DNA from: Chlamydiota bacterium
GTDB taxonomy: Bacteria; Auribacterota; JACPWU01
Direction: 5' to 3'
Length of the DNA stretch: 18,578 bases
Assembly: GCA_016196885.1 (NCBI GenBank)
Contig: JACPWU010000001.1
Location: 1-18,578, forward strand
A program made the translations under genes and the position numbers. This document shows, in pieces, positions 1,623-17,254 of the stretch (position 1 is the stretch's first letter; the number at the start of each line of letters is the position of its first letter). The notes below the pieces were generated by a model, which did no database searches, was not told where the DNA came from, and saw nothing but the letters and a program-made list of their open reading frames with translations.

Positions 1623-1654
1623 AGGTTCAAAAGTTCAAAGGTTCAAAAGTTTTG
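1607..1654. repeat. 16-bp tandem repeat x3 (AGGTTCAAAAGTTYAA) between convergent mazG and UDG
   Basis: Copies at 1607-1622 AGGTTCAAAAGTTTAA, 1623-1638 AGGTTCAAAAGTTCAA and 1639-1654 AGGTTCAAAAGTTTTG. The repeat contains the stop codons and last codons of both flanking genes. Confidence 0.9.
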
Positions 1655-2286
1655 GACTCTTTCCCTTTTTGCAATCCCAAAAAATCCCTCAACTTTTTTA
1701 CATGCTTCCACATGGATTCTTTTTTACGGGGGTCGTAGAGCAGGTAAGCAGGGTGATAGAGAACCATGAACTGAATGCCTGGATAATTTGGATGAATAAA
1801 AAAATTTCCGGCTTCTTGCTCCATGGAAAAATTTTTCTTCTCCGGAATCATATGTTTGAGCGCGGTGGCTCCTAAAAGTAAAATGATTTTGGGTTTCACA
1901 AGCTCTATTTGGAGGTTTAAATAAGGACGACAGGTTTTAGCTTCTGCTTCTACAGGCGCCCTGTTATTGGGAGGACGACATTTCACTACATTGATAATAA
2001 TCATGTCTTTGTTGGTATCGAGGTTAATGGAGGCCATGATTTTATCTAACAACTGACCCGCTCGTCCGACAAAGGCTTTTCCTTGTAAATCTTCTTGTTC
2101 TCCAGGGGCTTCGCCGATGACTAAAATTTCAGTTTGGGGATTGCCTCGGTCAATGACGAGATGGGTTCTTCCCTCATGAAGACCACATTGGGTGCAGCCT
2201 ACCTCCAGAAATTTCTTGCGAAATTCCTCGTAAGAATTTGCGGCTAAAACGGTGTTTTGGGCTTGGTCAAAGAGGTCAAATTGCAT
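1627..2286 (-). CDS. uracil-DNA glycosylase, family 4 (Fe-S type)
   Basis: ORF 1627..2286. Motif A is GEAPGEQEDLQGKAFVGRAGQLL and motif B is HPAYLL. Cys residues (CTQCG, VKCRPP, KTCRPY) are typical of family-4 UDGs. Confidence 0.9.
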   Translation of the reverse strand: MQFDLFDQAQNTVLAANSYEEFRKKFLEVGCTQCGLHEGRTHLVIDRGNPQTEILVIGEAPGEQEDLQGKAFVGRAGQLLDKIMASINLDTNKDMIIINVVKCRPPNNRAPVEAEAKTCRPYLNLQIELVKPKIILLLGATALKHMIPEKKNFSMEQEAGNFFIHPNYPGIQFMVLYHPAYLLYDPRKKESMWKHVKKLRDFLGLQKGKESKTFEPLNF

Positions 2287-2292
2287 GGGAAA

Positions 2293-2334
2293 AGCGTACA
2301 GCGTTTAGCGTTCAGCGTACAGAAAAAAATAATA
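2293..2334. repeat. heptanucleotide array AGCGTNN x4 + A7-TAATA tail
   Basis: AGCGTAC AGCGTTT AGCGTTC AGCGTAC AG AAAAAAA TAATA. It starts 7 nt from the UDG start codon. Related arrays lie at 7770 and 8538. Confidence 0.85.
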
Positions 2335-2377
2335 GGCATATGCACTCGATATCTTGGGTTCAAGACGTTAAGGAAAG

Positions 2378-2436
2378 TTGTAGTCGCCCCATTTATGGGG
2401 CATGCATGGATTGCCCGATAAATCGGGCGACTACAA
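2378..2436. repeat. REPIN-like inverted doublet of GTAG-headed palindromic units (copy A)
   Basis: Left unit TTGTAGTCGCCCCATTTATGGGGC (2378-2401), 11-nt spacer, right unit GCCCGATAAATCGGGCGACTACAA (2413-2436). Each unit is itself a hairpin, and the same doublet recurs at 12822 and 17896. Confidence 0.8.
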
Positions 2437-2447
2437 GTGCAAAAAGC

Positions 2448-3566
2448 TTAGCTCTCAAGCAGTTTTAGGATGCTTTTGGGTTCGAGGGGGGCGTGGAGGG
2501 TTTCTAAATTTTCTTTGAGGTGTTCATGCAATTTCATGCCGACCAGGGCAACAGTGATTCCGGGAGTGGAGCGGACAAATTGAATGGCTTTTTGGGCAGG
2601 GGTGGGAAGGGTGTCGAATAATTCCTGAATGGAATGGGGGATTGCCTGTGAAAGTCTTCCTTGAAAGAGAGAGGCGCTGGACATGACCATCATCCCCAGT
2701 GATTTTGCAGCTCCGAGAATGGAAATCCAAAGGCCATTTAATTCTTGATTTCTGTGAACGGAGGCTTCGGGGAGGATGAGATTGTAGGGGAGTTCTAGGG
2801 CTTTGAAATGATGGTTTTCTCCGGCAAGGTCTTTCGCGATTTGGATCAATTCCATTAAACTGAGATAGTCTTGCGATTTTGGATTGGCTCGGAAACCGTT
2901 CCATGTGGCCAGGCCATAATATTGAATTTTTCCTCTTTCGACATTTTCTTCTAATTGCTTAAAGGCAGACTCAATTCTTTTGTAAAATTGACTCCGAGAA
3001 ATGGCGCTCAATTGAATTTCAGGATTGTGGAGGTAATAGATGTCAGCGGTTTTCAATTGGAGGTTGGCCAGACTGGTATCAATCTGGTTTTGAATGTAGC
3101 GAGGGCTCATGCAATGACATTCTTCGACCAGTTCTTCTTCGAAAGCCAAGCCTTGTTCCACAAAGTTTTTCCGAAAATAGGCGACAGGGTCTTGGGGTGG
3201 ATGTTGATCGAAGGGAAGAAATCCTCCCTTGGTTGAAATCAGGATTTCTTCACGTCGAATTTTCCCTTGAGAGGAGAGGTACGTGAGGGCTTTTCCAATC
3301 GCTCGTTCGGACCTTTGAAAGCGGTAATTGATGGCGGTGTCAATGACATTGATGCCATTCGCAGTCGCTTCCTGAACTATTTTTTCAACTCTTTGATCTG
3401 TTTCAGTGTCTGCTTCACCCAGGTAAGTCCCTAATCCTAAGGAAGAGAGAAAGAGGGGAGGGAGAGGGGAAGCGAGTTTGCGAAAATGATCCGGATGCAT
3501 TTTTTTCTGAAATTTATCCCGGTATTTTTGAGTGCCTTCAGGCGTGGCAAATCCAACGATGTTCAT
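2448..3566 (-). CDS. aldo/keto reductase family oxidoreductase
   Basis: ORF 2448..3566. AKR-like segments include GLGTYLG...INVIDTAINYRFQRSERAIGKAL...ISTKGG...YYLHNPE. Confidence 0.85.
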   Translation of the reverse strand: MNIVGFATPEGTQKYRDKFQKKMHPDHFRKLASPLPPLFLSSLGLGTYLGEADTETDQRVEKIVQEATANGINVIDTAINYRFQRSERAIGKALTYLSSQGKIRREEILISTKGGFLPFDQHPPQDPVAYFRKNFVEQGLAFEEELVEECHCMSPRYIQNQIDTSLANLQLKTADIYYLHNPEIQLSAISRSQFYKRIESAFKQLEENVERGKIQYYGLATWNGFRANPKSQDYLSLMELIQIAKDLAGENHHFKALELPYNLILPEASVHRNQELNGLWISILGAAKSLGMMVMSSASLFQGRLSQAIPHSIQELFDTLPTPAQKAIQFVRSTPGITVALVGMKLHEHLKENLETLHAPLEPKSILKLLES

Positions 3567-3627
3567 ACAGGTTGTCCATTCAGTTTTAAATAGTATATCA
3601 TGATTGCTTTTAACCTTGGGGGTGTTG

Positions 3628-4068
3628 ATGCAATCTCAGTGGAAAGGGCCGTATCAATTTTATCAATGTCCAAGGGCGTGTCCTTCTTGCGGGCATGGAT
3701 TGGTGAGTTCAAAACGGCTGGATTGGCATATCCTGAAAAAGATTTACCATGATTTAGGCGAGACCTGTCATTGTGTGTCTTGCAATATCCGTTTTCGAGC
3801 TTTTGGGACGGTGTCTTTTCTTAAGATTTTTATTCTTGTGGCGATTTGGAGTTTTCTGGGATGTGCTGTGATTCTCTTTCTTGCTTTTTGGATTTTTAAG
3901 GTGCTGTGGATCCAATGGAGTGGGGTCGCTCTTTTTCTCTTGTATTTGGCGCGTGCACATCGGATTTTATTTTCCACGGCAGCAAGGCTGTGGTGGAAAG
4001 AGACAAGGCTTGAGAGAATACTGCTTTATGAGGGTGAGATCCCTCGTCGCCAAGACTCCTCGGGATGA
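3628..4068 (+). CDS. hypothetical membrane protein with N-terminal Cys4 zinc-ribbon-like motif
   Basis: ORF 3604..4068, where the TTG is the longest start. The ATG at 3628 is preceded by GGGGG at SD distance. It has CPRACPSCG...CHCVSCN followed by hydrophobic helices (FLKIFILVAIWSFLGCAVILFLAFWIF, VALFLLYLA). A strong terminator overlaps the stop. I recognised no family. Confidence 0.5.
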   Translation: MQSQWKGPYQFYQCPRACPSCGHGLVSSKRLDWHILKKIYHDLGETCHCVSCNIRFRAFGTVSFLKIFILVAIWSFLGCAVILFLAFWIFKVLWIQWSGVALFLLYLARAHRILFSTAARLWWKETRLERILLYEGEIPRRQDSSG

Positions 4069-4107
4069 CCCAGGCTGTCCTATTCGGACAGCCTGGGTCA
4101 TTTTTTT
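4065..4107 (+). terminator. rho-independent terminator
   Basis: Perfect 16-bp stem ATGACCCAGGCTGTCC / GGACAGCCTGGGTCAT (4065-4080 / 4086-4101), loop TATTC, then a T7 run (4101-4107). Confidence 0.85.
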
Positions 4108-4108
4108 C

Positions 4109-4137
4109 TTGATTTGAAAAGGCTTTTTCAATACCCT
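4109..4137 (+). promoter_or_regulatory. candidate promoter for the aldolase-OFOR operon (TTGATT-N17-TACCCT)
   Basis: -35-like TTGATT at 4109-4114, 17-nt spacer, -10-like TACCCT at 4132-4137, directly after the terminator. This is a weak call. Confidence 0.25.
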
Positions 4138-4174
4138 GAAGGCCAGGTTTTTTTGGACGAGGGAGGAAGTGAGT

Positions 4175-5128
4175 ATGATGACAGAAGTGAATGACAAAGT
4201 TGCTCAAGCCAAGGGAGTTGGGAAAAAGGGATCTTGGCTTTCTTTGGAAGATATGGATTTACCCACCGGTAAAAAGGTGCGGTTGCATCGTTTGCTTTAT
4301 GAACACGGTCCCAAAAATGGGACTTTGATGGTATTGCCCATTGATCAGGGTCTGGAACATGGTCCCCGTGATTTTGCGACTAATCCTCCGAGTGCGGATC
4401 CAGAATTTCAGTACCGTTTGGCCCTTGAAGGAGGCTACTGTGCCATCGCAGTTCAGGTCGGCTTGGCTGAGAAATATCAGAATAAATATGCTGGAAAAGT
4501 TCCCCTTATTTTAAAATTGAATGGTAAAACAGAAGTTCCTCCGGATGATGAGGCCTTTAGCCCTCTCAACGCCTCTGTGGAAGATGCGGTGCGGTTGGGA
4601 GCAGATGCGGTGGGCTATACTATATATGTAGGGTCTCCCTCCCAAGATCGAGATTTTGCTCAGTTTCGAGGGGTGCGCCAAGATGCCCAGCGTTATGGGA
4701 TTCCTGTGATTGTGTGGGCCTACCCCCGCGGTCGAGAAATGGATAGGGACAAGGGGGGGCGTGAGAGTATTTATGCGGTGGATTATGCGGCCCGCGTGGC
4801 TTGTGAATTGGGGGCCGATGTGGTGAAGGTGAATTTTCCTAAAATTGATGAGAAAAAGCAGGCCCAGTATCCCAAGCCGTATGACACGATGAAGGCAACA
4901 GAGTTGGAATTGATGAAGAAGGTGGTCGAGTCGGCAGGCAAGACTTTGGTCCTTTTGTCTGGCGGAAGCAAGGTGGGAGACGAAGAGCTTTTGCGCAAAA
5001 TTAAAGTCGCCATGGATGCAGGGGTGGTAGGTATTATCTTTGGCCGCAACATGTGGCAGAGAAAATATGAAGATGCCATTCGAGCTTCGAAGAAAGTGAC
5101 GGAACTTTTAAAGGGGTATGCGAGATAG
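4175..5128 (+). CDS. fbaB: class I fructose-bisphosphate aldolase, DhnA/FbaB family
   Basis: ORF 4169..5128. The ATG at 4175 follows SD GGGAGG (4161-4166). It is collinear with the E. coli FbaB motifs I recall: LPIDQGLEHGP, LKLN, VGYTIYVGS, VIVWAYPRG, DVVKV, LSGGSK, GIIFGRNMWQR. The related ADH-synthase (AroA') activity cannot be excluded. Confidence 0.8.
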   Translation: MMTEVNDKVAQAKGVGKKGSWLSLEDMDLPTGKKVRLHRLLYEHGPKNGTLMVLPIDQGLEHGPRDFATNPPSADPEFQYRLALEGGYCAIAVQVGLAEKYQNKYAGKVPLILKLNGKTEVPPDDEAFSPLNASVEDAVRLGADAVGYTIYVGSPSQDRDFAQFRGVRQDAQRYGIPVIVWAYPRGREMDRDKGGRESIYAVDYAARVACELGADVVKVNFPKIDEKKQAQYPKPYDTMKATELELMKKVVESAGKTLVLLSGGSKVGDEELLRKIKVAMDAGVVGIIFGRNMWQRKYEDAIRASKKVTELLKGYAR

Positions 5129-5137
5129 GAGTTTTCA

Positions 5138-6901
5138 ATGTTAGAACATGAGATTACAGTAGGAATTGGGGGGGCGGCGGGTGATGGAATTGCTTCAACA
5201 GGAGATACACTTTCTAAGAGTTTTTCTCGTGCGGGCATAGATATTTATGTCTATAACAGCTATCAGTCTGTGATTCGAGGGGGTCACGTGTGGTTGAGGC
5301 TTCGAGCCTCCCAAGAGAAGGTGTCTAATCATGGGGATCATCTGGATGTTGTGATTGCCCTCAATCAAGATACGGTAGATCAGCATGCCTTAGAAGTAGA
5401 GCCCGGCGGTGGAATTATTTTTAATTCGGATCGTATCAAGATAGACGAGGCCCATCTTAAAGCGGGTGTTAAGGCTTTCCCCATTCCAGTTCTTGAACTT
5501 CTAAAATCTTTTCCTGACAAAAATCCCATTTATCAAAACATTATTGATTTGGGTGCTCTTTTGGCCTTAACCGGTATGGATTTTCAAGTGACGGCCGATT
5601 TGATCAAAGAAACCTTTGAAAAAAAGGGTGAGAAAGTCATTGAAACCAATATCAACATGCTCAAAATGGGCTATGACTATGCGAAGAAAAATTTTCAGCC
5701 CCTGAGAAAAGCGCTCAAAGGCGATTCTAAGAAACGCATGGTGACGACCGGCAATGAATTGATTGCCATTGGTGCAACGGCGGCCGGTTGCAAATTTTAC
5801 AGTGCCTATCCCATGACTCCTGCAACTTCTATTCTTCAGTGGATGGCCAATCGGGGCACCCAGTATGGTGTGGTTGTGAAACAGGCTGAGGATGAAATTT
5901 CAGTCGTTAACATGGCGATTGGTGCGGGTCATGTGGGTGTAAGGTCTATGTGTGGAACGTCGGGCGGTGGTTTTGCTCTCATGACGGAAGCGGTCGGTGC
6001 AGCTGCAATGACAGAGACGCCTGTTGTGATTGTGAATGTCATGCGAGGGGGTCCTTCTACAGGTCTTCCCACCAAAACAGAACAGGGCGATTTAAATCAA
6101 GTTCTCGGAGCTTCACAAGGTGATTTTCCTCGGGCCATTATTGCCCCTACCCATATTGTAGATTGTTACAATGTAGCGGTTGAGGCCCATAATTTGGCAG
6201 AAATTTATCAATGCCCTGTTTTGATTCTTTCAGATCTTTTGGTTTCGGAACATCATGAAACGGTTTATCTGGATGATATTAAATTTGATGTTCCCATTGA
6301 TCGAGGTCAGGTTGTTTCAAAGTGGGATGAGTCAAAGGGCCGCTTTAAGAGATATCAGTTTACAGAATCAGGCGTTTCTCCTCGAGCCTTGCCAGGTACA
6401 GAGGGTACCCTTTTTGTGGCTGCGACGGACGAGCATGACGAAGACGGAGTTTTGGTCAGCGATGTTTTCACCAATCCTGTCATTCGTAAGCAAATGATGG
6501 AAAAGAGAATGAGAAAGCTGGATGAAATTGTAAAGCGCTTTCCCCTTCCCAAAATTTGGGGTGCTCAAGATGCTGAGACTACCTTGATTGGATGGGGTGC
6601 CAGTGGCGGTGTTATTCAGGAAGCGATTTCGCTTTTAGCCAAGGAAGGAATTAAGGTCAATCACCTTCAGTTTAAATATTTGTATCCTTTCCCAGGAGAG
6701 GCTGTTTTAAAAATTTTGGAGAAATTAAAAACCACCTATATTGTGGAAGCAAATTATACCGGGCAGTTCGCTCGCTATTTAAGGGGAGAAACAGGTTTTA
6801 AACCCACCGGACAGATTTTAAAATATGATGGTGAGCCCTTTGAGCCTCTACATATTGTAAAAGAAGTAAAGGAGAAGAAAGCTTATGCCAGAAGTCGCTG
6901 A
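5138..6901 (+). CDS. korA: 2-oxoacid:ferredoxin oxidoreductase, alpha subunit (fused gamma+alpha domains, KorA-like)
   Basis: ORF 5138..6901 with SD AGGAG upstream. The N-terminal gamma-like domain is GIGGAAGDGIASTGD...SVIRGGH, followed by an alpha domain (FYSAYPMTPATSI, GTSGGGFALMTEA, GPSTGLPTKTEQGDL). Substrate (2-oxoglutarate, pyruvate or broad) cannot be determined from sequence. Confidence 0.9.
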   Translation: MLEHEITVGIGGAAGDGIASTGDTLSKSFSRAGIDIYVYNSYQSVIRGGHVWLRLRASQEKVSNHGDHLDVVIALNQDTVDQHALEVEPGGGIIFNSDRIKIDEAHLKAGVKAFPIPVLELLKSFPDKNPIYQNIIDLGALLALTGMDFQVTADLIKETFEKKGEKVIETNINMLKMGYDYAKKNFQPLRKALKGDSKKRMVTTGNELIAIGATAAGCKFYSAYPMTPATSILQWMANRGTQYGVVVKQAEDEISVVNMAIGAGHVGVRSMCGTSGGGFALMTEAVGAAAMTETPVVIVNVMRGGPSTGLPTKTEQGDLNQVLGASQGDFPRAIIAPTHIVDCYNVAVEAHNLAEIYQCPVLILSDLLVSEHHETVYLDDIKFDVPIDRGQVVSKWDESKGRFKRYQFTESGVSPRALPGTEGTLFVAATDEHDEDGVLVSDVFTNPVIRKQMMEKRMRKLDEIVKRFPLPKIWGAQDAETTLIGWGASGGVIQEAISLLAKEGIKVNHLQFKYLYPFPGEAVLKILEKLKTTYIVEANYTGQFARYLRGETGFKPTGQILKYDGEPFEPLHIVKEVKEKKAYARSR

Positions 6902-7766
6902 ACTTCCCGTATCCCTTTATAAAAGCGAGACCAAGCCGGATTGGTGTCCGGGTTGCGGAGACTATGGTGTTTTGAATTGTCTTCAAAAAGCGGTTTCTAA
7001 ATTGGGGATTTATCCAAAAGATCTTTTGATTGTTTCTGGCATTGGATGTTCCTCCAATTTACCAGGTTTTATTCATACGTATGGTTTTCACAGCCTTCAT
7101 GGCCGTGCGGTTCCTGTCGCAACGGGTGCAAAGCTGGCAAACCCGGATTTAAATGTTGTCATCACAGGCGGTGACGGAGATGCCTATGGTATTGGTTTGG
7201 GGCACTTTTTGCATGTGGCTCGAAGAAATATCAATTTGACTTACATTGTGATGGATAATCAAATCTATGGATTAACCACAGGTCAGGCTTCTCCCACATC
7301 CCGAAAGGGACATAAGACAAAATCTACACCTGCTGGCAATATTGAAACTCCTTTGAACCCATTGGCTTTGGCGATGATTTCAGGCGCTACTTTTGTGGCC
7401 CGTGGTTTCTCAGGGGATGCCAATCACCTTTCTGATATTATGGCTCAGGCGATTGCCCATAAGGGATTTTCTCTGGTGGATGTGTTCAGTCCTTGTGTCA
7501 CCTACAATAAGGTGAACACGTATCCTTGGTTCCGAGAAAATATTTACAAGCTTGAGGATGTAAAACACGACCGCAGTGATTATGAAGCAGCACTTAAGAG
7601 AGCCCACGAATGGGACACAAAGAAAATCCCAATTGGTGTTTTCTATCAAACCATTGCTCCAACTTATGAAGAGGAAGACGTCACTTTGAAGAATGTTCGT
7701 CCTCTCAAGCAGAAGTTGGGACTCACTTCCCAGCAGGCTCAAGAGATTTTGAAAGAGTTTATTTAA
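6885..7766 (+). CDS. korB: 2-oxoacid:ferredoxin oxidoreductase, beta subunit (TPP-binding, KorB-like)
   Basis: ORF 6885..7766. It overlaps korA by 17 nt and has SD AAGGAG. Motifs are CPGCGDYG, GIGCSS and the TPP motif GGDGDAYGIGLGHF...MDNQIYGLTTGQ. Confidence 0.9.
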   Translation: MPEVAELPVSLYKSETKPDWCPGCGDYGVLNCLQKAVSKLGIYPKDLLIVSGIGCSSNLPGFIHTYGFHSLHGRAVPVATGAKLANPDLNVVITGGDGDAYGIGLGHFLHVARRNINLTYIVMDNQIYGLTTGQASPTSRKGHKTKSTPAGNIETPLNPLALAMISGATFVARGFSGDANHLSDIMAQAIAHKGFSLVDVFSPCVTYNKVNTYPWFRENIYKLEDVKHDRSDYEAALKRAHEWDTKKIPIGVFYQTIAPTYEEEDVTLKNVRPLKQKLGLTSQQAQEILKEFI

Positions 7767-7769
7767 GTA

Positions 7770-7810
7770 AGCGTTTAGCGTACAGCGTTCAGCGGTCAGG
7801 AAAAACAAAT
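7770..7810. repeat. heptanucleotide array AGCGKNN x4 + A-rich tail
   Basis: AGCGTTT AGCGTAC AGCGTTC AGCGGTC AG G AAAAAACAAA. It starts 4 nt after the korB stop and uses the same unit set as 2293-2322 in a different order. Confidence 0.85.
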
Positions 7811-7869
7811 CGGCTCCTTTAACTGCCTGCCGCTATCGTCCTGGCTTCATACAAACTTCAACCTTCTCT

Positions 7870-8529
7870 TTGATCTTGAAAAAAAATCTTGAGGGCTATT
7901 CTTCCTTTTTTTCTGATCTTCGACCTGAAGAGGTTCATCGTCTGGCCCAAGTCGCTCAAGAAAAAAATTATAGTAAGGGCGAACTTGTTTTTTCCCGTGG
8001 GGAACCCGGAAATGCTGTTTGGATTCTGAAGGAAGGACGAGTTCATCTTCAGAATGTTTCCTACGATGGTAAAGTCATTACTTCTTGTATTATGATTGCT
8101 GGAGACGCCTTTTGTTGTTTGCCTGCCTTGGATGGAAAACCCTATACGTCGGATGCGGTGGTGATAGAACCTTCTCTTGTGTTGCGTATCCCCTCAGATT
8201 TTTTTAGACAGTTGGCCCGGGAAAATCCGCGTTTTTCTAATAAAGTGATGTGCACCTTCTGTGATCGTCTAAGAGACATGGAAGGGAAAGGCTGCCAGGC
8301 TTTTGATCCTGCTGAACTGCGTATGGCCAGACTCCTTCTTACTCTTGGAGAGAAATTCAAGGGAGAGATTCCGCTCACCCGTCAGGAAATGGCCGAAATT
8401 GCAGGTCTCACCGTTGAAACTGCTATTCGAATTTTAAGCCAGATGAAAAAAGAGGGCATCATTCGATCTGGCCGAAAGATGACGAAGGTTGTTAATCTCC
8501 AGAAGCTTAAAGAGAGGGTGGTGGAATAG
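7870..8529 (+). CDS. Crp/Fnr family transcriptional regulator (paralogue 1)
   Basis: ORF 7870..8529, starting at TTG with no convincing SD. It has a cNMP-binding-like beta-roll (ELVFSRGEPGNAVWILKEGRVHL) and a C-terminal HTH LTRQEMAEIAGLTVETAIRILSQMKKEGII. There is no FNR-type N-terminal Cys cluster. Confidence 0.85.
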   Translation: MILKKNLEGYSSFFSDLRPEEVHRLAQVAQEKNYSKGELVFSRGEPGNAVWILKEGRVHLQNVSYDGKVITSCIMIAGDAFCCLPALDGKPYTSDAVVIEPSLVLRIPSDFFRQLARENPRFSNKVMCTFCDRLRDMEGKGCQAFDPAELRMARLLLTLGEKFKGEIPLTRQEMAEIAGLTVETAIRILSQMKKEGIIRSGRKMTKVVNLQKLKERVVE

Positions 8530-8537
8530 AGACAGTG

Positions 8538-8641
8538 GTGAGGGGTGAGTCCGTGAGGGGTGAGTAAAAAAATAATACCTTCAAAACTCACAACAGACGA
8601 CTCACACTGCTTTTACTCACGACTCACCCCTCACGACTCAT
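8538..8641. repeat. inverted arrays of GTGAGNN / NNCTCAC heptamers forming a long imperfect hairpin
   Basis: The left arm GTGAGGG GTGAGTC c GTGAGGG GTGAGTA + A7 TAATA spans 8538-8577. The right arm holds ACTCACN units at 8586-8606 and 8614-8641. GTGAGGGGTGAGTC (8538-8551) is perfectly complementary to GACTCACCCCTCAC (8621-8634). Confidence 0.8.
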
Positions 8642-8652
8642 AACTGTTCTCT

Positions 8653-8666
8653 ATGATTTCAATCAT
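8653..8666. promoter_or_regulatory. Crp/Fnr-type palindrome, box 1 (cTATGAT-TTCA-ATCATAc) upstream of paralogue 2
   Basis: Perfect 6+6 palindrome TATGAT N4 ATCATA centred at 8659.5. TGt-TCCAAT (TG 8686-8687, hexamer 8689-8694) starts 29.5 bp downstream of the centre. An alternative -10, TACAAT, lies at 8666-8671. Confidence 0.5.
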
Positions 8667-8709
8667 ACAATGAAGTCCTAAGATTTGTTCCAATAGATGG
8701 GGAGATAAT

Positions 8710-9387
8710 ATGGAACAATTCTTGAGCCAGATCGGTCCTTTTCAGGTTCTTTCGAGAAAAGAGCTTTTAAACCTTTCAGATCAAACCCACGAGAAGGTTT
8801 TTGAAAAAGGAGAGATTGTTTTTAGAGAGGGGGAAAAATCCTCTTTTGTGTGGCTGGTGAAAACAGGCTGGGTGCATTTAGTTCGTCGCAGTTCTTTGGG
8901 TCATCTGGTCATCCTCTTTACCATGACGCCTCGTGAGATTTTGTGCGGTGTTTCAGCCTTTGACCAAGAACCTTACGCAGCCGATGCTATTGCCGCGACT
9001 CAATGTGTTTTGCTTCAGATTCCAACGCCTCTTTTCGTTAATCTCCTAAATCATCATTCAGATTTTTGTCGTGAAATCCTTTCGATCTGTTCCAAAAGAA
9101 TTCGTTGTATGGCTCAAAAATTGGGAGGTGCGATGGACCCTGTTTCTCACCGAATGGCCAGACTCCTTCTTGCCTCCTTGGAAGATTTTGGAGATGAAAT
9201 TCCCTTTACCCATCGCGAGATGGCTCAAATGGTAGGGTCTAGAATAGAAACCTCTATTCGAACTTTTCGTCCTTTAAGAGAAAGGGGATTGGTAGATGTG
9301 AAGAGGTCTTGCATTAAAATTATTCAGCCTCTGCGGCTTATTTCAGAGCTGAGTCGCTGGTTAAAAATGGATAAAACAGCTCTATGA
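8710..9387 (+). CDS. Crp/Fnr family transcriptional regulator (paralogue 2)
   Basis: ORF 8710..9387 with SD GGGGAG. The beta-roll is EIVFREGEKSSFVWLVKTGWVHL and the HTH is FTHREMAQMVGSRIETSIRTFRPLRERGLV. Confidence 0.85.
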   Translation: MEQFLSQIGPFQVLSRKELLNLSDQTHEKVFEKGEIVFREGEKSSFVWLVKTGWVHLVRRSSLGHLVILFTMTPREILCGVSAFDQEPYAADAIAATQCVLLQIPTPLFVNLLNHHSDFCREILSICSKRIRCMAQKLGGAMDPVSHRMARLLLASLEDFGDEIPFTHREMAQMVGSRIETSIRTFRPLRERGLVDVKRSCIKIIQPLRLISELSRWLKMDKTAL

Positions 9388-9408
9388 GATAGATCATAGA
9401 GCTGTTTT
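9376..9408 (+). terminator. hairpin terminator after Crp/Fnr paralogue 2 (also contains box 2)
   Basis: 12-bp stem ACAGCTCTATGA / TCATAGAGCTGT (9376-9387 / 9394-9405), loop GATAGA, then TTTT. The T-tract is short, so termination may be partial. Confidence 0.55.
9383..9398. promoter_or_regulatory. Crp/Fnr-type palindrome, box 2 (TATGAG-ATAG-ATCATA) upstream of the kinase operon
   Basis: Centre at 9390.5. An extended -10 TGtTATCCT (TG 9417-9418, hexamer 9420-9425) begins exactly 29.5 bp downstream. SD GAGGA (9444-9448) and ATG 9456 follow. Confidence 0.45.
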
Positions 9409-9455
9409 CTGGGTCTTGTTATCCTCTTACTGGGTAGCAGAATGAGGATAGGGTC

Positions 9456-10415
9456 ATGCACATTTGTACGAAGTGGAAACTGGCTTTTTTAGGTTTGGTC
9501 CTAAGCTTTGGAAGCCCACTCGGATGGTTGTTGATACAATGCTATTCACAGGGGATAGATGGTTTTCCGCAATCTCTTCTTGATCAATGGGATGTATCAG
9601 AACCGCTTTACCTTTACCTCACTTTCGGAACGAGTTTTTTCTTCTCTGCCTTTGGTTATTTTGTAGGGCACCTTCTTGAACAAATCATAGAAAAAGATCG
9701 CCTCTTAGAAATTAAAACCCAAGATTATATGAGAATTGTTGGGCTTGTCGCTCATGAACTGAAGACCCCTTTAACTTCTGTCAAGGGTCGTTTGGATCTT
9801 ACTTTGGGAGGACATTATGGGGTTTTGGGGGATGCGTTGAAGAATGCTCTTCTAAAGGCCGTCATTGCATGTGAACAGATTAATCAGATGATTTCTTCTT
9901 ATCTCAATCTTTCGAGAATTGAACGAGGTGAGTTAGATGTTCATTTGAAGAAATTGAATTTATTAAAAGAGGTGATTGAGCCTGTGACTGAAGAGATGAG
10001 AGGAATCCTTGAGAATGATCAGATGACATCTCAGATTCAAAAAAACTTTCGGGGTGATTGTATGATGAGTGGAGATATTCAGTGGCTAAAGGTTATTTTT
10101 AGAAATCTTTTAATGAATGCAGTGAGATATGGGCTTTCACATACGGTGATTGAGATTCGTTTGAGTGAATCTTTTGAAAAGTGGCGGGTAGAGGTTCTTA
10201 ACCAGGGTTGTGGAGTTCCAGAAGAATATCGGGAAAAGATTTTTGGGAGATTTGAGAAGGTCCCTCGCTCAGAAAAAATGGCAGAAGCCGGTTCTGGCCT
10301 GGGTTTGTATATTGTGAAGCAGATTATAGAACAGCATAAAGGGGATATTCATTGCGAAAGCGAAATAGGGAAATGGGCCAATTTTATTGTGAGTTTTCCA
10401 AAGATCGTTTTGTGA
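9456..10415 (+). CDS. membrane sensor histidine kinase (2 TM, no obvious extracytoplasmic domain)
   Basis: ORF 9456..10415. It has two N-terminal hydrophobic helices, H-box VAHELKTPLTSV, N-box NLLMNAVRYG and G-box GSGLGLYIVKQIIEQHKGDI. No response regulator is present anywhere in the window. Confidence 0.85.
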   Translation: MHICTKWKLAFLGLVLSFGSPLGWLLIQCYSQGIDGFPQSLLDQWDVSEPLYLYLTFGTSFFFSAFGYFVGHLLEQIIEKDRLLEIKTQDYMRIVGLVAHELKTPLTSVKGRLDLTLGGHYGVLGDALKNALLKAVIACEQINQMISSYLNLSRIERGELDVHLKKLNLLKEVIEPVTEEMRGILENDQMTSQIQKNFRGDCMMSGDIQWLKVIFRNLLMNAVRYGLSHTVIEIRLSESFEKWRVEVLNQGCGVPEEYREKIFGRFEKVPRSEKMAEAGSGLGLYIVKQIIEQHKGDIHCESEIGKWANFIVSFPKIVL

Positions 10416-10439
10416 GTCAATTTTGGAAAGGATAAATCT

Positions 10440-11417
10440 ATGGGATATCTTTTTGGGCCTGTCTATTCTTCTCGTTTGGGATGGTCTTTGGGGGTGGATG
10501 TGATTCCTCATAAGATTTGCAACTTTGATTGCATTTATTGTGAATGTGGGAAGGGAACGCTTTGGGTCAATCGAAGGGGGCACTTTGTTCAGTTGGGAAG
10601 GTTGATAGAGGAATTTGAGAATTATTTAGAAGAGCAAGGAAAAAATTATTTTAATGTGGTGACGATCACAGGCTCAGGAGAACCCACGTTAGAGATTCAA
10701 CTGGGCAGAGTCATTGACGAGATCAAGAAGAGGCTTTCTAAACCAGTGGCCGTTTTAACCAATGGCTCATGGATGAGAAATGAGGATGTTCAGAAAGATT
10801 TAGCCTTGGCAGATATAGTGCTTCCTTCTTTAGACGCTGTGAGTCCGGAGGTTTTTAAGAAAGTAGATCAGCCTTGTTCCGGAATTGAAGTGGAGTCCAT
10901 TATTTCTGGAATGATTGATTTTCGTCAGAAGTATGCAGAGATTCAATTTTGGTTAGAAATTTTAATGGTCTCGGGCGTTAATGATTCTCCAGAGGAAATT
11001 CACTTGCTTAAGAAAGTGATTGATCGAATTAAGCCGCACCAAGTACATGTGGGGACTGTGACTCGTCCACCCGCGTATCCTGAAGCGAAACCTCTTTCTC
11101 AAGAGCGTTTGAGAGAGATTCAAGCTTTTATAGTCCCTTCGGGACAGCAATTCCTCTGGCCTGTGTCTCTATTTTCTGACGCTCAGGAAAGAAGCTTCCC
11201 AAGGTGTAAACAGGATAGGACAGGGCATGATGTAAATTTTCAAATGGTTCTGGAAACAGTGAAGAGAAGGCCTTGCTCATTGAATCAACTGGTATCCTTG
11301 ACTCATGGAAGTGAAGATGACCTTTTGCAAGAGCTTAATCGTTGGTGTGAAGAAGGAAAATTGATCCGAAAAAAATACGAGGGACAAGAATTTTTTGCAT
11401 GGCCGTTTAAACCCTAA
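10440..11417 (+). CDS. radical SAM protein (small COG0731/Tyw1-like type) with C-terminal winged-helix-like tail
   Basis: ORF 10440..11417 with SD GGAAAGGA. The N-terminus is GPVYSSRLGWSLGVDVIPHKICNFDCIYCECG (CxxxCxxC), followed by a GSGEPTL glycine-rich motif. Confidence 0.8.
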   Translation: MGYLFGPVYSSRLGWSLGVDVIPHKICNFDCIYCECGKGTLWVNRRGHFVQLGRLIEEFENYLEEQGKNYFNVVTITGSGEPTLEIQLGRVIDEIKKRLSKPVAVLTNGSWMRNEDVQKDLALADIVLPSLDAVSPEVFKKVDQPCSGIEVESIISGMIDFRQKYAEIQFWLEILMVSGVNDSPEEIHLLKKVIDRIKPHQVHVGTVTRPPAYPEAKPLSQERLREIQAFIVPSGQQFLWPVSLFSDAQERSFPRCKQDRTGHDVNFQMVLETVKRRPCSLNQLVSLTHGSEDDLLQELNRWCEEGKLIRKKYEGQEFFAWPFKP

Positions 11418-11431
11418 AAAAGGAAATTTTC

Positions 11432-12772
11432 GTGCCCAGTTTTAAAGATAGATTTCATTTGTTTTGTGAAGATCCTTATCGGCTTTTTTTCCCCTTGGCC
11501 ATTGTTATGGGGATGGTTGGGGTAGGTCATTGGCTTTTTTTTGCGCTTGGCTGGACTTCTTCTTACTCCGGTTTTTTTCATTCCTCTATTCAAATGCAAG
11601 CTTACATGGCTTCGTTTGTAGTGGGTTTTTTACTCACGAGTTTGCCACGATTTGCCTCTCTCCCCCATGCAACGGCGGGAGAGCTTTTCACTTTTGCTCT
11701 TCTCATTATTCTGGAATGGTTTTTCGCTAGGCATGGGTGGTGGTCTCTTTCTGAGTCTTGTTTTCTGGGTTTGCTGATGACGCTTGGATTTTTTGCCTTC
11801 CGAAGATTTTCCAAAAGACGTCTGACAAATCTTCCCCCTGTAGAATTTGTTTGGATTCCGATTGCCTTACTTCAGGGTGCGATCGGTGTCATCTGTTTAA
11901 TTTTGGGACGAAGGGGCTGGGGTCCTCTTTTTTTACTGAAGGTGGGAAAGCCGATGTTAGATCAGGGTTTTCTGATGTCTATTGTTCTGGGAGTAGGGGG
12001 ATTTCTTGCGCCTCGTGTGATGGGGAATTTTAGGCCCATGGTGAATGCTCAGGAGATGTTTTTAGGGCAAGGGAAAAAGATGCGGCATCGAAATATTCGC
12101 CTACATTTGTTTCTTGGTTTTTGCATGTTCTCGAGTTTTTGGTTTGAGGCCATTTCTTTATCCAGGGTGGCGTATCTATCAAGAGCGGTGATTGTAACTT
12201 CTTCATTCTTTTTGAGCCGCTCTTGGAAATTTCCTAAAGCAAAAGACTTTTTTCTTTGGCTTTTATGGATTTCCATTTGGATGGTGATTTTAGGAAGCTG
12301 GGCCATTCCTCTTTTTTATCGCTACCGCGTGGAAATGCTTCATATTGTCTTTATAGGGGGATTTAGTCTGATGACCTTTTCAGTTGGGACGATGGTGGTT
12401 TTGGGACATGCAGGTGAATCCCAAAGGTTAAAAAAGCCTTTGCCCGTTTTATGGGGTGTGGCGATTGCTTTAGCGATGGCTCTTGTTCTGAGAGTGGTAG
12501 CGCCTTTCTATCCAAAGTTTTATTTTCAAATTTTAGGACTTGCCTCTTTCTGTTGGATTTCTGCCGCGCTCTCTTGGTTCGGTTTTATCTTGCTGCGTGT
12601 TTTCCGTTTTGTCTCTGTGCATACGTTTGAAAAATTTCATGAAGAGGCTAAGCAAGAATCGCTTGAGCACACAGAGAAATCATCTTTTCATACTGTAAAG
12701 TATGCCTCGCATGGCGCGGAGCGTCTTCCTCGCATCCAATCCTCCTTAGGCGGCCTAGCTCAAGAAATCTGA
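11432..12772 (+). CDS. nnrS: NnrS family polytopic membrane protein
   Basis: ORF 11432..12772, GTG start 6 nt after SD AAGGA. It has about 12 hydrophobic helices. The N-terminal FRLFFPLAIV...GHWLFF and H..IQ..AYMASFVVGFLLTSLPRF segments resemble the NnrS HxxxxFGF..GFLLTA.PNW region as I recall it. The hydrophilic C-terminal extension is about 60 aa. Confidence 0.65.
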   Translation: MPSFKDRFHLFCEDPYRLFFPLAIVMGMVGVGHWLFFALGWTSSYSGFFHSSIQMQAYMASFVVGFLLTSLPRFASLPHATAGELFTFALLIILEWFFARHGWWSLSESCFLGLLMTLGFFAFRRFSKRRLTNLPPVEFVWIPIALLQGAIGVICLILGRRGWGPLFLLKVGKPMLDQGFLMSIVLGVGGFLAPRVMGNFRPMVNAQEMFLGQGKKMRHRNIRLHLFLGFCMFSSFWFEAISLSRVAYLSRAVIVTSSFFLSRSWKFPKAKDFFLWLLWISIWMVILGSWAIPLFYRYRVEMLHIVFIGGFSLMTFSVGTMVVLGHAGESQRLKKPLPVLWGVAIALAMALVLRVVAPFYPKFYFQILGLASFCWISAALSWFGFILLRVFRFVSVHTFEKFHEEAKQESLEHTEKSSFHTVKYASHGAERLPRIQSSLGGLAQEI

Positions 12773-12821
12773 TGAGAAACAGACATGACTGTCCGTCAGA
12801 AAGGGGGATGAAAATCACCCT

Positions 12822-12870
12822 TTGTAGTCGCCCCATTTATGGGGCTGCCCGATGAATCGGGCGACTACAA
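12822..12870. repeat. REPIN-like inverted doublet (copy B, 1-nt spacer), core of composite repeat 12803-12925
   Basis: TTGTAGTCGCCCCATTTATGGGGC t GCCCGATGAATCGGGCGACTACAA. It is flanked by GGGGGATGAAAATCACCC upstream and a ~55-nt tail that is about 80% identical by eye to the flanks of copy C. Confidence 0.85.
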
Positions 12871-13042
12871 GTCATCATAACTTATTGTATAAGAAAGAGT
12901 AAAGACTGTTTTCAGATAAAATACGGGCTAGCAAAAATCAAAACCTGATCTAAATCATGTTTTTATTCTAAAGGATCTGTCACCGTCACAATGGGGTTGT
13001 GTGAATTTGAAAGGCTTTCGGTCCAAAAGGGGGGAGGCGTGT

Positions 13043-14155
13043 GTGCTTGACTCGTCTTACTTTTCTACCCTTTTTGAATGGATCTCGGATGGGGTTGCCA
13101 TCTCAGATTTGGCGGGGGATGTTCTTTATTTGAATCCTGCGGCTGAAAAAATAACGGCGTTTTCTCGGGAGGCATTAAAGGGTAAAAAATTATGTGAGGC
13201 GCTGTGCGGGCATCTGTATGGTTCGGATCCAAGAGATTTTGCTTTGTTCTGTCCCTTGCGCAAGGGGCAATCGTCTGAATGTAGCATTTGCTTTAAAGGA
13301 GTTTATCAACCTAATAAAGATTTAAAGGCTCGACATCTTCGAATTCATTGTTTTAGGCCGCCTGTATCAGAAGGGGGCGTGGAAGAGGAAGGTAGACATT
13401 TGACCTTGATGGAAGATATCTCCTCAGAAACAGAGCTTGAGGAACATAAAAAGGATTGGCAGAATATGGTGGCGCATGATCTGCGCAGTCCCCTGAGTAC
13501 TATTTTGGGGGCCCTTCAGTTGTTTCCAACCCTGCATTCCTTTTCTTCGGACGAGAAATATTGGATAAATGTAAGTTTGAATGCTGGAAAAAGAATGATC
13601 AAGCTTTTGAACCTTTACCTGGATATTTCAAAACTTGATGCGGGTTTAATGTTGGTTCACTTTGAATCATTTCCTTTATCCCCATTAATTCAAAATTATG
13701 TTGATGAAATCATGCCTTTGGTGCGCTCCCGTCAAATGACTGTGCTTGTGAATATTTCATCTCAGTTGGAGGTGTATGCCGATCGCGATCTTTTGTTGCG
13801 CGTGGTTCAAAACCTGATAGACAATGCGATTAAATATACATCTGAGGGCGGATGTGTTATTGCCTCCGCAGAACATCTCACTCATCATAGAGGAGTCCGA
13901 CTCTCCGTGAAGGATACGGGTTCGGGTATTTCACCTCAAGATCTTCCTCATGTTTTTGACCGTTTTTATCAGGCTCGCGTGCGTCAAGAAGGGGGCACTC
14001 AGGGAACGGGGCTGGGACTGACCTTTTGCAAAGAGGCATTGAAGGCGATGGGGGGAACCATTGAGGTTTTTTCCAAACAAGGAGAGGGGACGGAATTCTT
14101 GGTTGAGCTTATGACAAAAATCGAAACCCCACTTCCTTTTTTCACAGTTGGATAG
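13043..14155 (+). CDS. PAS-domain sensor histidine kinase with Cys-rich PAS insertion
   Basis: ORF 13001..14155. I prefer the in-frame GTG at 13043 because it follows a strong SD (GGGGGGAGG, 13029-13037). The PAS-like N-terminus is [28 protein letters not shown], the H-box is [12 protein letters not shown], the N-box is [10 protein letters not shown] and the G-box is [20 protein letters not shown]. Confidence 0.85.
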
Positions 14156-16892
14156 AGGCTTTGACAAGTTCTCCCAAAGAACGGGTCAGATCAAACCCCA
14201 GTTTTTCACAAATATGCTGCATCATGTGATTATCTGGAAGGATTTCGGCGGCGAGGCGGTGGATTTTTTCACAGCGCGCTATTTCAAGGAGTTTTTTCAG
14301 GAGCTCTGTTCCTAATCCCTGGTTTTGATAAAAATCATTCACTAAAACAGCAAATTCTGCTTGAGAGGGATCGCGTAATTTACTGAGACGTCCCACAGCC
14401 AGAATTTCGTGATTTTCTGTTTGAGAATTTTTCAAATCTGCAACCAGCGCCATTTCGCGGTCATAATCAATAAAACATCGGTGAATCATACGTTCATGGG
14501 TAGTACGTTGGTCTAGTTTGAGGGATTCAAAAAAGCGTGAGTAGACGCTTCTTTCTGAAAGTGTTTGATGAAATTGAACCATCAAGGGTTCATCCTCAGG
14601 ACGGATCGGGCGAAAGGTGATGGCTTGACCCTCTTTTATTTTCCACTGGCTGATATATTGAATGGGATAAGGGCGGATGGCAGTCAAAACTGTTTTTGAA
14701 GAAGATGACAAATCTTGAGGACGCAGAATGATTCGGGCGTCTAGAGCAATGATTTGATCAGGGCTTGCAAGTAGGGGATTGATGTCGATTTCCTGAATAG
14801 AGGGTTGTTCCATAACCAGTTGACTAAATTGGACTACAATTTTTTCAAGCTCTCCTAGATTAATGGCCTCCTCCCCTCTGACTCCTTTGAAGGCAGAAAA
14901 TATTTTGGTTCTTTCCATCATGAGTCGGGCCAGGGTGCTGTTGAGGGGAGGAAGGGAGAGGGAATGGTCTTTGAAAATTTCCACCCATTTTCCTCCCAGA
15001 CCAAATAAAATAACAGGTCCAAATTGGGGGTCGAGGCTGCTGCCCAGAATAAGCTCAAAACCAGCAGTTTGAATCATGGGTTGAACGGTAACCCCTAAAA
15101 AGTGTTTTGCTCCTCTTTTACGAGTGACAGAATTTTGGATGCTGTCGAAGGCGCGTTTAACCTCTTCGCTGTTTTTAAGATTCAGCTGAACCCCACCTAC
15201 ATCTGTTTTATGTGTGAGGGTCTGGGAATGAAGTTTGAGAACAACGGGGTAGCCCATTTCCTGAGCGATTTGAGAGGCTTGCTCTGGATTTTGCGCGTGT
15301 CGTGTTTGAACAGTTGGAATTTGATATTCCGATAAAATTTCCTTGGCCTCTAACTCTGTTAACAAGGTTCTATTTTGTCGATAGATTTTTTGAATCATTT
15401 TTTCAATTTTTGATTTTTGAGAAGACATTTTATCTGTTTCGAGAGAGAAGGTAGGTGTTTCATAAAGATTTTTAAGATGCTGTTGATGTTGCCACATGTA
15501 GTTAAAAATTCGTACAGCTGTGTCTGGATAAGAAAAATGAGGAATATGGGCCTCACTTAGAATGTTTTGTCCTTTTGCAACATCCACACCTCCCATCCAA
15601 CTGGCAAGAATAGGTTTGTCTATTTTGGGAAGATGATCTTTGATCTGTTGTGCTGTTTGCGTAGGTTCTGTCATGGCCTGGGGGGCTAGGATCAGAAGAA
15701 GTCCATCGCTCTCTTTATCTTCTGCCGCGATTTCCAAGGCCTGCCGATACTTTTCAGGGCTTGCATCGCCTAAAATATCAATGGGGTTTGCATGGCTCCA
15801 GTGAGGTGGAAGAATTTGATTAAGCTTTTGCAAGGTGTTTTCAGAAAGGGGAGCTAACTTTCCTCCTCCCCAGATCAATGCATCTGTTGCAATCACACCC
15901 GCTCCGCCCGCATTGGTTAAAATGGCCAATCGAGGGCCTGTGGGAAGGGGTTGTTTTGCTAACACCTCGGCCATGTAGAAAAGATCTGCAATGCGTTCAA
16001 CGCGTAAGACCCCGGAGCGGCGAAACGCAGCGTCTAGAACTTCATCGCTTCCAGTCAGAGTTCCTGTGTGGGAAGACGCGGCTTTTGAGGCTTCTTCGGT
16101 TTGACCTACTTTTAAAACGATAATGGGTTTAGTGAGGGCCACTTCTCGTGCGGCTGATAAAAATGATTTTGCATCTCCAATGGACTCCATGTAAATGACA
16201 ATACTATGCGTGTTTGGATCATCGCCTAAGTAGTTAATCATGTCCCCCCAGTTGATGTCGAGCATGGATCCTAAAGAAACGAAGGCGCTAAATCCGAAAG
16301 ACTCTTTCAGGCTCCAGTCCAGAATGGCTGTGCATAAAGCACCGCTTTGGCTGATAAAACCGACATGTCCTGGTTTCGCTAGGGTTCTGGCAAAAGTGGC
16401 GTTGAGTCCAGAAATAGGATTCATGACTCCCAGACAATTGGGACCGATGATACGCAAGGAACTCTCTTTTAAATATTTTTGGATTTCATGCTCAAGTTGT
16501 ATACCCGGAGCACCACATTCTTTGAAACCGGCTGAGATGATGATGGCTCCTTTAACATTTGCATTCACACATTCTTTGACAATAGGAGGGACGGTCGAAG
16601 CTGGAGTCACGATAATGGCGAGATCTATTGGGTCTTGAATGGAAGAAAGTGTCGGGTAAGCTTTAATGCCCATGACACTTGGGCGTTTCGGATTTACCGG
16701 ATAAATCGTCCCTCCAAAAGGATGGCTTAGAAGATTTGACAAGAGGGTGCGTCCCACGCTTCCTTCCTTTTCTGTGGCTCCAATCAAGGCGACATGACGT
16801 GGAGAAAAGATCGCATCCAGGGGGTGATCTCGATACCCCAGAAAGTCATGTGAGGGATCGTGAAGGGAGGATATTTTTAACGTTTTAGTCAT
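14142..16892 (-). CDS. Pat/PatZ-type protein: NDP-forming acyl-CoA synthetase-like domains fused to C-terminal GNAT acetyltransferase
   Basis: ORF 14142..16892, 916 aa. The N-terminal CoA-binding fold is [21 protein letters not shown]...IYPVNPK and the ligase-CoA region contains [11 protein letters not shown]. An ATP-grasp segment ([12 protein letters not shown]...GYPVVLKL) and a C-terminal GNAT ([23 protein letters not shown]) follow. The 3' end overlaps the convergent kinase by 14 bp. Confidence 0.9.
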
Positions 16893-16904
16893 GTCATGAA
16901 TCTT

Positions 16905-17162: not shown

Positions 17163-17209
17163 ATTTTTCTCCTTTCTTTGAGAGTTCACATCTCCATCCC
17201 CATGAGAAC

Positions 17210-17254
17210 ATTATAAATGGGAAAGACCTTCTCTTTTTATGATCTATATCATAA
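17210..17254 (-). promoter_or_regulatory. Crp/Fnr-type palindrome, box 3 (TTATGAT-CTAT-ATCATAA) plus consensus -10 for the small-ORF/Pat operon
   Basis: Perfect 7+7 palindrome at 17237-17254, centre 17245.5. On the minus strand a perfect TATAAT (17215->17210) begins 30.5 bp downstream of the centre. The predicted TSS is near 17203, about 41 nt upstream of the ATG at 17162. Confidence 0.5.

Follow-up and report, generated by a model that had tools for sequence, protein, structure and literature searches.

The operator of E. coli FNR, and of ANR, FnrL and FixK, is the FNR box TTGAT-N4-ATCAA. Here we describe a related box in an 18,578-nt stretch of DNA from a Chlamydiota bacterium (contig JACPWU010000001.1, positions 1 to 18,578), which as a whole is called the window. 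The 16-bp palindrome TATGAT-N4-ATCATA occurs there in four intergenic copies, one of them weaker, and one copy lies between two tandem genes for Crp/Fnr regulators, crp1 (paralogue 1) and crp2 (paralogue 2). The box likewise has the 5-N4-5 arrangement and the identical TGAT/ATCA core. As in FNR class II promoters, the centre of three copies lies about 41.5 bp before the predicted transcription start site (TSS), a -35 hexamer is missing and the presumed binder has cNMP-binding and HTH_Crp domains. The differences from FNR lie outside TGAT, where A is found in 26 of 30 half-sites (ATGAT) and a further conserved T extends the motif to TATGAT, and in the proteins. Neither paralogue has an N-terminal Cys, let alone the FNR cluster, and the internal six-Cys pattern of crp1 is different. 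Judging from the sequences, the boxes with this geometry are probably class II activator sites for a dimer of an uncharacterised Crp/Fnr subfamily.

The E. coli protein acetyltransferase gene patZ/yfiQ is reportedly controlled by cAMP-CRP. In the window, a candidate Crp-family site likewise lies near the predicted -41.5 position before a Pat-type gene, a fusion of an NDP-forming synthetase and GNAT. The box differs from that of CRP (TGTGA-N6-TCACA) in its 4-bp spacer, and the recognition helices have Ile or Val at the position of Arg180. cAMP is an unlikely ligand since both paralogues are without the phosphate-binding Arg-Ser pair of CRP; by eye, Tyr-Ala and Tyr-Thr stand at the aligned position.

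In Pseudomonas, ANR and DNR form a two-regulator Crp/Fnr cascade for N-oxide respiration and stress. The window resembles such cascades in having two Crp/Fnr paralogues, a box 5' of the second and one Cys-rich paralogue. The predicted targets, counted over the window and the other boxed loci, are also of types known from such cascades (NnrS, DUF1858, cytochromes c and, as neighbours in the related locus L006, the nitrite reductase proteins NrfA and NrfH). The window differs in that the genes stand in tandem and the host is an environmental chlamydia. Comparable pairs are the FixK2-NnrR cascade of Bradyrhizobium (PMC6710368) and HcpR1/HcpR2 of Desulfovibrio (PMC5701242). The motifs given by Rodionov et al. 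2005 are TGTGA-N6-TCACA, TTGAC-N4-GTCAA and GTAAC-N4-GTTAC (PMC1274295). The window box is unlike every HcpR motif in that paper and unlike the TTGCG-type boxes in PMC6710368. Text searches of the literature for the box as ATGAT-N4-ATCAT, ATGATnnnnATCAT and related forms returned classical FNR-box papers only. What is new is a Crp/Fnr subfamily that is uncharacterised and has a box variant of its own; the mechanism is textbook.

The boxes and their promoter geometry

The boxes, the hexamers beside them and the two regulator genes are listed below, with scores from a position weight matrix (PWM).

S1, 8652-8667, no strand: box TATGATTTCAATCATA 5' of crp2; 22.2 bits; kept in 8 genomes
S2, 9383-9398, no strand: box TATGAGATAGATCATA with one mismatch, 5' of the histidine kinase-radical SAM-NnrS operon; 18.6 bits
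S3, 17238-17253, no strand: box TATGATCTATATCATA in a divergent intergenic region, assigned to the minus-strand operon; 25.2 bits
S4, 12944-12959, no strand: weaker box CCTGATCTAAATCATG 5' of a PAS histidine kinase gene (13001-14155); 15.3 bits
8686-8694, plus strand: extended -10-like element TGtTCCAAT, hexamer 21 nt past S1; predicted TSS about 8701
9417-9425, plus strand: extended -10-like element TGtTATCCT, hexamer 21 nt past S2; predicted TSS about 9432
17210-17215, minus strand: TATAAT, 22 nt past S3; predicted TSS about 17203
7870-8529, plus strand: crp1, Crp/Fnr family, Pfam cNMP_binding and HTH_Crp_2, recognition helix VETAIRI
8710-9387, plus strand: crp2, Crp/Fnr family, Pfam cNMP_binding and HTH_Crp_2, recognition helix IETSIRT

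The initial annotation had reported the palindromes S1-S3. All three are present, and the coordinates agree within one base, considering that S1 and S3 had been quoted with spans a little narrower or wider. Its gene calls also agree with ours. The excess of TGAT-N4-ATCA cores that it described was also found: the window has 5 where 0.67 are expected, and none of 200 dinucleotide shuffles reached 5. Two of these cores, at 1992 and 14326, lie in coding DNA, miss the outer TA and are probably due to chance. The list of sites was right for S1-S3 and fell short on the fifth core, cCTGATCTAAATCATg at 12946-12957. It is intergenic, 5' of the PAS histidine kinase gene and inside S4, and had not been listed as a site.

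The PWM was trained on 15 sites from relatives only, with the window left out and every site entered on both strands. A scan with this matrix gave four matches of at least 15 bits in the window, against 0.02 expected from 100 Markov shuffles. In the training set the TGA and TCA bases were invariant, the outer T was kept in 29 of 30 half-sites and the outer A in 26 of 30. The spacer is non-random as well, with yTAr preferred. The site has two-fold symmetry over about 14-16 bp and conserved half-sites of 5-6 bp, as in operators of the Crp/Fnr family. No RNA family in Rfam matched the window at the gathering threshold, so the palindromes are no known RNA element. S1 and S3 were also considered as RNA structures; this was rejected, since shuffled sequences fold just as well (z = -0.15 and +0.06).

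We then counted the distances between boxes and hexamers directly. The centre of S1 is at 8659.5 and TCCAAT begins at 8689, 29.5 bp away; the centre of S2 is at 9390.5 and TATCCT begins at 9420, again 29.5 bp away. For S3, with the centre at 17245.5, the minus-strand TATAAT begins at 17215, a distance of 30.5 bp. The three distances that had been claimed are therefore exact. With a hexamer at offset 21 nt, the -10 begins 29.5 bp past the box centre, as predicted for class II (-41.5) geometry. TGn precedes the hexamer at S1 and S2 (TGt in both), as well as at sites in the related loci L001, L003 and L004. There is no TTGACA-like hexamer at the -35 position; at S1, spacings of 16-18 bp offer TAcaat, ATAcaa and Acaatg. 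A consensus promoter scan on the strand of the downstream gene found no sigma-70-type promoter at S1, S2 or S3. A missing -35 hexamer is what one expects of a class II activator-dependent promoter. A dimer bound near -41.5 would cover the -35 position and bring in RNA polymerase by direct contact, replacing the absent -35 contact. S4 is without class II geometry because its closest -10-like hexamer, TATTCT, is at offset 5, with the box centre about 13.5 bp from the hexamer.

The same phasing was found in a larger set. In 58 of 76 non-redundant boxes TAnnnT starts at offset 21 past one or both ends, against 6-11 boxes at offsets 19, 20, 22 and 23. TATGAT itself fits TAnnnT, and tandem boxes were therefore considered as the source of the peak. 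This was ruled out, since their spacing of 34-36 bp would give offsets of 18-20.

The organism of the window is represented by an uncultured metagenome-assembled genome (MAG), and relatives were found by degenerate scans and homologue look-ups. Syntenic loci were L001, from a genome scan (crp2 66% identical), and L003, L004 and L006, from homologue look-ups (90%, 68% and 57%). L007, L008 and L009, with crp2 identities of 43-45%, came from a metagenome scan. The initial annotation had held that loss of the palindromes from orthologous regions would speak against it. We found a box 5' of crp2 in all 8 genomes: the window, L001, L003, L004, L006, L007, L008 and L009. When the crp2 upstream regions are aligned, only the box and the T's at the ends of the downstream hexamer are invariant; the flanks have diverged. 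By direct count, the hexamer starts 21 nt past the box in all 8 promoters. The hexamers are TCCAAT (twice), TCTAAT, TATTCT, TAAGTT, TATATT, TATCCT and TAGACT, and four of the eight follow TGn.

A public contig of the same MAG (L005; JACOUD010000002.1 of GCA_016178005.1) is 100% identical to the window over 9.1 kb, in an alignment of two pieces, and stops within crp2. These overlap by 50 bases (window 2405-2454; L005 2476), and the coordinate offset changes there from +22 to +71. The break points to a short repeat that differs in copy number or in its assembly.

Two regulators and a second lineage

Both paralogues carry PF00027 and PF13545, so that genes of the proper family adjoin the boxes, as is usual for Crp/Fnr operators. 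We also scanned metagenomes with the crp2 recognition helix as the key. The scan gave 80 loci, and most of their regulators are about 30% identical to either paralogue. The helix GTTVETSIRT accounts for 74 of the helices found across all loci. The regulator family has more than 1,300 sequences at E <= 1e-20, and the only taxonomic source labels on its members are two, Nitrospirota and Betaproteobacteria. In 555 kb there are 80 boxes with at most one mismatch, where shuffles give 1.8, and such a box is present in 55 of 84 loci. These counts are non-independent events because the loci are phylogenetically related. The regulator is the only gene family common to both sets of loci examined.

In this second lineage the boxes are usually paired, 34-36 bp apart, in a divergent promoter adjoining the regulator gene. 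A gene for a 70-aa DUF1858 protein flanks one side and a gene for a 137-aa membrane protein with weak COX1 similarity the other. In L054 both boxes of the pair are 21 nt away from the -10-like hexamer of the respective gene. The paired-box divergent promoter is present in L054 (7160-7560) and in about 50 other metagenome loci, and the DUF1858 protein has a CxxC motif. The 137-aa membrane protein is similar to the His-rich helices in subunit I of haem-copper oxidase. Behind the DUF1858 gene of L054 there is another small ORF, which is rich in Cys (7557-7690).

The crp2 helix residues E180, T181, S182, I183, R184 and T185 are invariant in 18 homologues (alignment A1). Cys79 and His168 of crp2 are invariant as well. 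The helix of the crp1 orthologues reads VET(A/T)IRI. From an alignment with E. coli CRP and FNR, we take both paralogues to have V/I, E, I and R at the equivalents of CRP positions 180, 181, 184 and 185. The helix Glu and Arg are presumably common to E. coli FNR and both paralogues, and the shared TGAT/ATCA core fits this. At the position that we take to be Ser212 of FNR, the window helix has Ile, which may explain ATGAT rather than TTGAT.

No curated NCBIfam model was matched at its cut-off by either paralogue. Against those for Fnr, FixK, FnrL, FtrB and CRP the scores were 25-54 bits, far short of the cut-offs of 211-300. The Fnr model gave 49.9 bits for crp1 (cut-off 228) and no match for crp2, and the CRP model gave 37-38 bits (cut-off 266). 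An exact-protein look-up of crp2 found no match. A PDB search with both paralogues found generic Crp/Fnr proteins only, at best E values of about 1e-16 to 1e-17.

The cognate regulator of the boxes is most probably crp2, and paralogue 1 may bind them too. We favour crp2 because its ETSIRT matches the regulators of the second lineage exactly and because L007 has a boxed crp2-type gene with no crp1 within 6 kb. S1 would then serve positive autoregulation of crp2.

The crp1 gene itself has no box. This had been claimed for the window, where no PWM match of at least 8 bits is found in the region 5' of crp1 (7767-7869), and it holds in L001, L003 and L004 as well. Upstream of crp1 in L001 and L009 there is an extended -10, TTTGATATAAT, which looks constitutive. 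A second conserved motif 5' of crp1 was sought and dismissed: there is no palindrome, and only the extended -10 is common to the two loci. L009 has a weak box 5' of crp1, at offset 7 from TATAAT.

The missing box and the constitutive-looking -10 of crp1 speak for a possible two-tier cascade. In it a constitutive, Cys-rich crp1 would be the primary sensor and would switch on crp2 through S1; crp2 would then act on the other boxes, in the way that ANR switches on DNR, or FixK2 NnrR. The tandem order crp1-crp2 is kept in 6 related loci besides the window, and the crp1 helix keeps the V/I, E, I and R positions of crp2. Six Cys are kept across the crp1 orthologues (C73, C82, C83, C128, C131 and C142; alignment A2). 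They include a CxxC in the dimerisation helix, in a pattern unlike FNR, and may be an Fe-S ligand set or another redox site. Pairs of sensors have precedents in HcpR1/HcpR2 (PMC5701242) and FixK2-NnrR (PMC6710368). However, the boxed crp2-type gene of L007 stands without crp1, the single regulators of the second lineage carry the ETSIRT helix and not the crp1 type, and the Fe-S cluster of crp1 is a guess from the Cys pattern only. We regard the cascade as a serious possibility, somewhat short of an even chance. It overlaps with class II activation, and the two do not exclude each other.

The spacer between the two regulator genes holds a further structure.

8534-8638, plus strand: long imperfect hairpin between crp1 and crp2, in the repeat spacer 8534-8640, with GTGAGGGGTGAGT repeats; inverted repeats I1, I2 and I4

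The hairpin has a folding energy of -45.9 kcal/mol (z = -5.9) and no T-run. The GTGAGGGGTGAGT direct repeats are accompanied by inverted copies, ACTCACCCCTCAC. It could act as a terminator or insulator, or could simply be a small repeat element; if it insulates or terminates, crp2 would rely on its own promoter. The spacer of the closest relative, L003, is unrelated and AT-rich. Another inverted repeat, AAGATTTGTTCCA / TGGAACAATTCTT (window 8680-8723), spans the predicted crp2 -10 to the first codons and may be chance.

Operons behind the boxes

The two candidate target operons and the palindrome around S2 are the following.

9456-12772, plus strand: candidate target operon of histidine kinase (9456-10415), radical SAM (10440-11417) and NnrS (11432-12772) genes, by Pfam
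9373-9408, no strand: perfect palindrome with 15-bp arms, AAAACAGCTCTATGA-GATAGA-TCATAGAGCTGTTTT, enclosing S2 and the end of crp2; inverted repeat I3
14142-17189, minus strand: candidate target operon of a 94-aa ORF (16905-17189), then Pat (14142-16892), by Pfam and NCBIfam

S2 overlaps the stop codon TGA of crp2 (9385-9387). It is also terminator-like because it lies inside the perfect palindrome, whose fold reaches -21.9 kcal/mol (z = -6.6) and is followed by UUUUCU; a terminator scan also picked it up. As in an intrinsic terminator, a stem-loop stands directly after a stop codon and is followed by a T-run. One may then read S2 as the terminator of crp2 alone, with an incidental likeness to the box and no box regulation of the kinase operon. 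The position has no box in L001 or L004, which suits this reading. However, only 5 of the 15 stem pairs are G-C, the U-run is four long before the C, and the loop-proximal stem is the operator palindrome. S2 also scores 18.6 bits by a PWM built from other genomes, where 0.02 such sites are expected, and TGtTATCCT lies exactly 21 nt past it, as in the architecture of S1. At the same position L006 has a half-conserved box (1323-1338; PWM 9.6) with TACACT at offset 21. In L001 a hemerythrin gene with its own box stands in front of the NnrS orthologue (52% identical), and TGtTAGTCT follows that box at offset 21. NnrS thus keeps its predicted regulon membership even where the promoter is not kept. 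A terminator without operator function is unlikely, and we conclude from the sequence comparisons that S2 is both a terminator-like hairpin of crp2 and a candidate activator site for the downstream operon. Expression of the kinase, radical SAM and NnrS genes would then rely on the activator, and the hairpin would stop read-through from crp2, leaving the operon activator-dependent. The claimed box control of the NnrS operon was supported with an amendment: NnrS is boxed through hemerythrin in L001, while S2 itself is absent from L001 and L004 and weak in L006.

The gene order crp2-histidine kinase-radical SAM is kept in L001, L004 and L006. In L003 the first kinase gene is deleted and the radical SAM gene follows crp2 directly. 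Cytochrome c genes lie behind boxes in L003 and L007. Downstream of crp2 in L003 (11749-15629), a box is followed by genes for two proteins without annotation, for a cytochrome c and for an NrfH-like multihaem protein of 508 aa. In L006 the genes for NrfA and NrfH (cytochrome c nitrite reductase) stand downstream of crp2 in the same gene string (3341-5107). The cargo of the crp2 locus differs between genomes, and the regulators stay constant.

Two further inverted repeats belong to the kinase operon. In the first, TATCCTCTTACTG / CAGAATGAGGATA (window 9420-9450), the predicted -10 of the kinase gene pairs with the Shine-Dalgarno region (GAGGA). It could mask the ribosome-binding site of the kinase in read-through transcripts from crp2; a transcript beginning at about 9432 would be without the 5' arm. 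The second, the hairpin GTAGTCGCCC...GGGCGACTAC (window 12823-12870), lies 3' of NnrS in an 81-nt region that folds with -40.7 kcal/mol (z = -6.6) and has no T-run. It may mark the end of the operon. The 18.6-kb window holds two histidine kinase genes (9456-10415 and 13001-14155) and no response regulator gene.

S3 stands in front of the second operon. Its Pat has 916 aa, in which an NDP-forming acyl-CoA synthetase is fused to a GNAT acetyltransferase. The initial annotation had placed the Pat operon under box control, and we found that the Pat orthologues in L001 and L004 also have a box upstream, at offsets 20 and 21. Expression of the small ORF and Pat would rely on the activator. The plus-strand ORF on the other side of S3 (17313-17711) was considered as the target and rejected: on the plus side there is only TATAAG at offset 27, and the homologous ORF of L003 (80% aa) is boxless. 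S3 belongs to the small ORF-Pat operon since L003 keeps the plus-strand ORF homologue without a box. The PAS kinase and Pat genes are convergent and share 14 bp at their 3' ends (window 14142-14155). Pat scores 538.6 bits against the model of the acetate-CoA ligase alpha subunit, not far below the cut-off of 567. It may therefore be more than a protein acetyltransferase and have, fused to GNAT, an ADP-forming acetyl-CoA synthetase that is active, which would fit the 2-oxoacid:ferredoxin oxidoreductase genes that adjoin it.

S4 lies by the PAS kinase gene, which is not found in the loci of the relatives. With its different geometry it would, if functional, more likely repress. All boxes might also be read as repressor operators, where a bound dimer would block the -35 region until a signal releases it. 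Repression is possible from a site that overlaps the -35, the positions of S4 (offset 5) and of the weak crp1 box of L009 (offset 7) between -35 and -10 are repressor-like, and HcpR2 of D. desulfuricans was modelled as a repressor (PMC5701242). However, the rigid 21-nt phasing is needed for contact between activator and polymerase and not for occlusion, there is no recognisable -35 hexamer to occlude, and the -10 elements are weak and TGn-assisted, as is typical of activator-dependent promoters. Repression as the general function of the boxes is quite unlikely.

That the boxes are chance AT-rich palindromes or sites of an unrelated transcription factor is hardly credible: the pattern with at most two mismatches is weakly enriched when taken alone (4 against 0.82 expected; 3 of 200 shuffles reach 4), but the observed motif enrichment, cross-genome conservation, fixed -10 phasing and joint occurrence with a single regulator subfamily in another lineage effectively refute chance.

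The activator reading and its meaning

Class II activation has to be weighed against several observations that do not fit it easily. Across genomes, only 6-32 nt separate the -10 hexamers from the start codon of crp2, so the mRNAs would have very short leaders or be leaderless, and a TSS at 8701 would cut the crp2 Shine-Dalgarno sequence GGGGAG. The offsets at the Pat promoters vary (20 in L001, 21 in L004 and 22 in the window) and are looser than those of crp2. S2 is absent in L001 and L004, L003 is without the kinase gene and S2 can be explained as a hairpin. Since crp1 has the same presumed specificity positions, the assignment to crp2 is non-exclusive. The relatedness of the metagenome loci, given above, counts here as well. 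Even so, the claim of the initial annotation that the adjacent Crp/Fnr regulators control the crp2, kinase and Pat operons is supported by the comparative evidence, from which we infer binding, the direction of regulation and the transcription starts.

The signal is suggested by the target genes. The stimulus would be nitric oxide (NO), nitrite or anoxia because NnrS, hemerythrin, cytochromes c, DUF1858 and Pat are under predicted box control. The NrfA and NrfH genes in the L006 gene string and the 2-oxoacid:ferredoxin oxidoreductase genes next to Pat point in the same direction. In Bradyrhizobium, the genes that depend most on NnrR include one for a DUF1858 protein (PMC6710368). We saw no hcp, nor or nir genes; NnrS, hemerythrin, DUF1858 and cytochrome c genes lie behind the boxes.

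The value of these loci is in annotation and hypotheses and not in a new concept. A candidate DNA motif can now be assigned to a very large uncharacterised regulator family. It is usable for regulon annotation in MAGs, where it can point to proteins like NnrS, DUF1858 or the small COX1-like membrane protein as candidates in the sensing of NO or anoxia.

What is known of transcriptional control in chlamydiae comes almost entirely from the pathogens, and these have very few regulators. The loci described here give a testable regulon for anaerobic environmental chlamydiae, with an operator, a promoter geometry and target genes. More tentatively, an undescribed subfamily might run the nitrosative or anoxic response in environmental Chlamydiota and in the second lineage. 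In the chlamydiae it would have duplicated to form a cascade from the Cys-rich sensor crp1 to the autoregulated effector crp2 and on to NnrS, the cytochrome and Nrf genes and Pat. We put this forward as a speculative proposal, doubtful in its full extent. If the cascade is true, redox or NO sensing would be tied to acetate-forming energy metabolism or to protein acetylation in a lineage poor in transcription factors.

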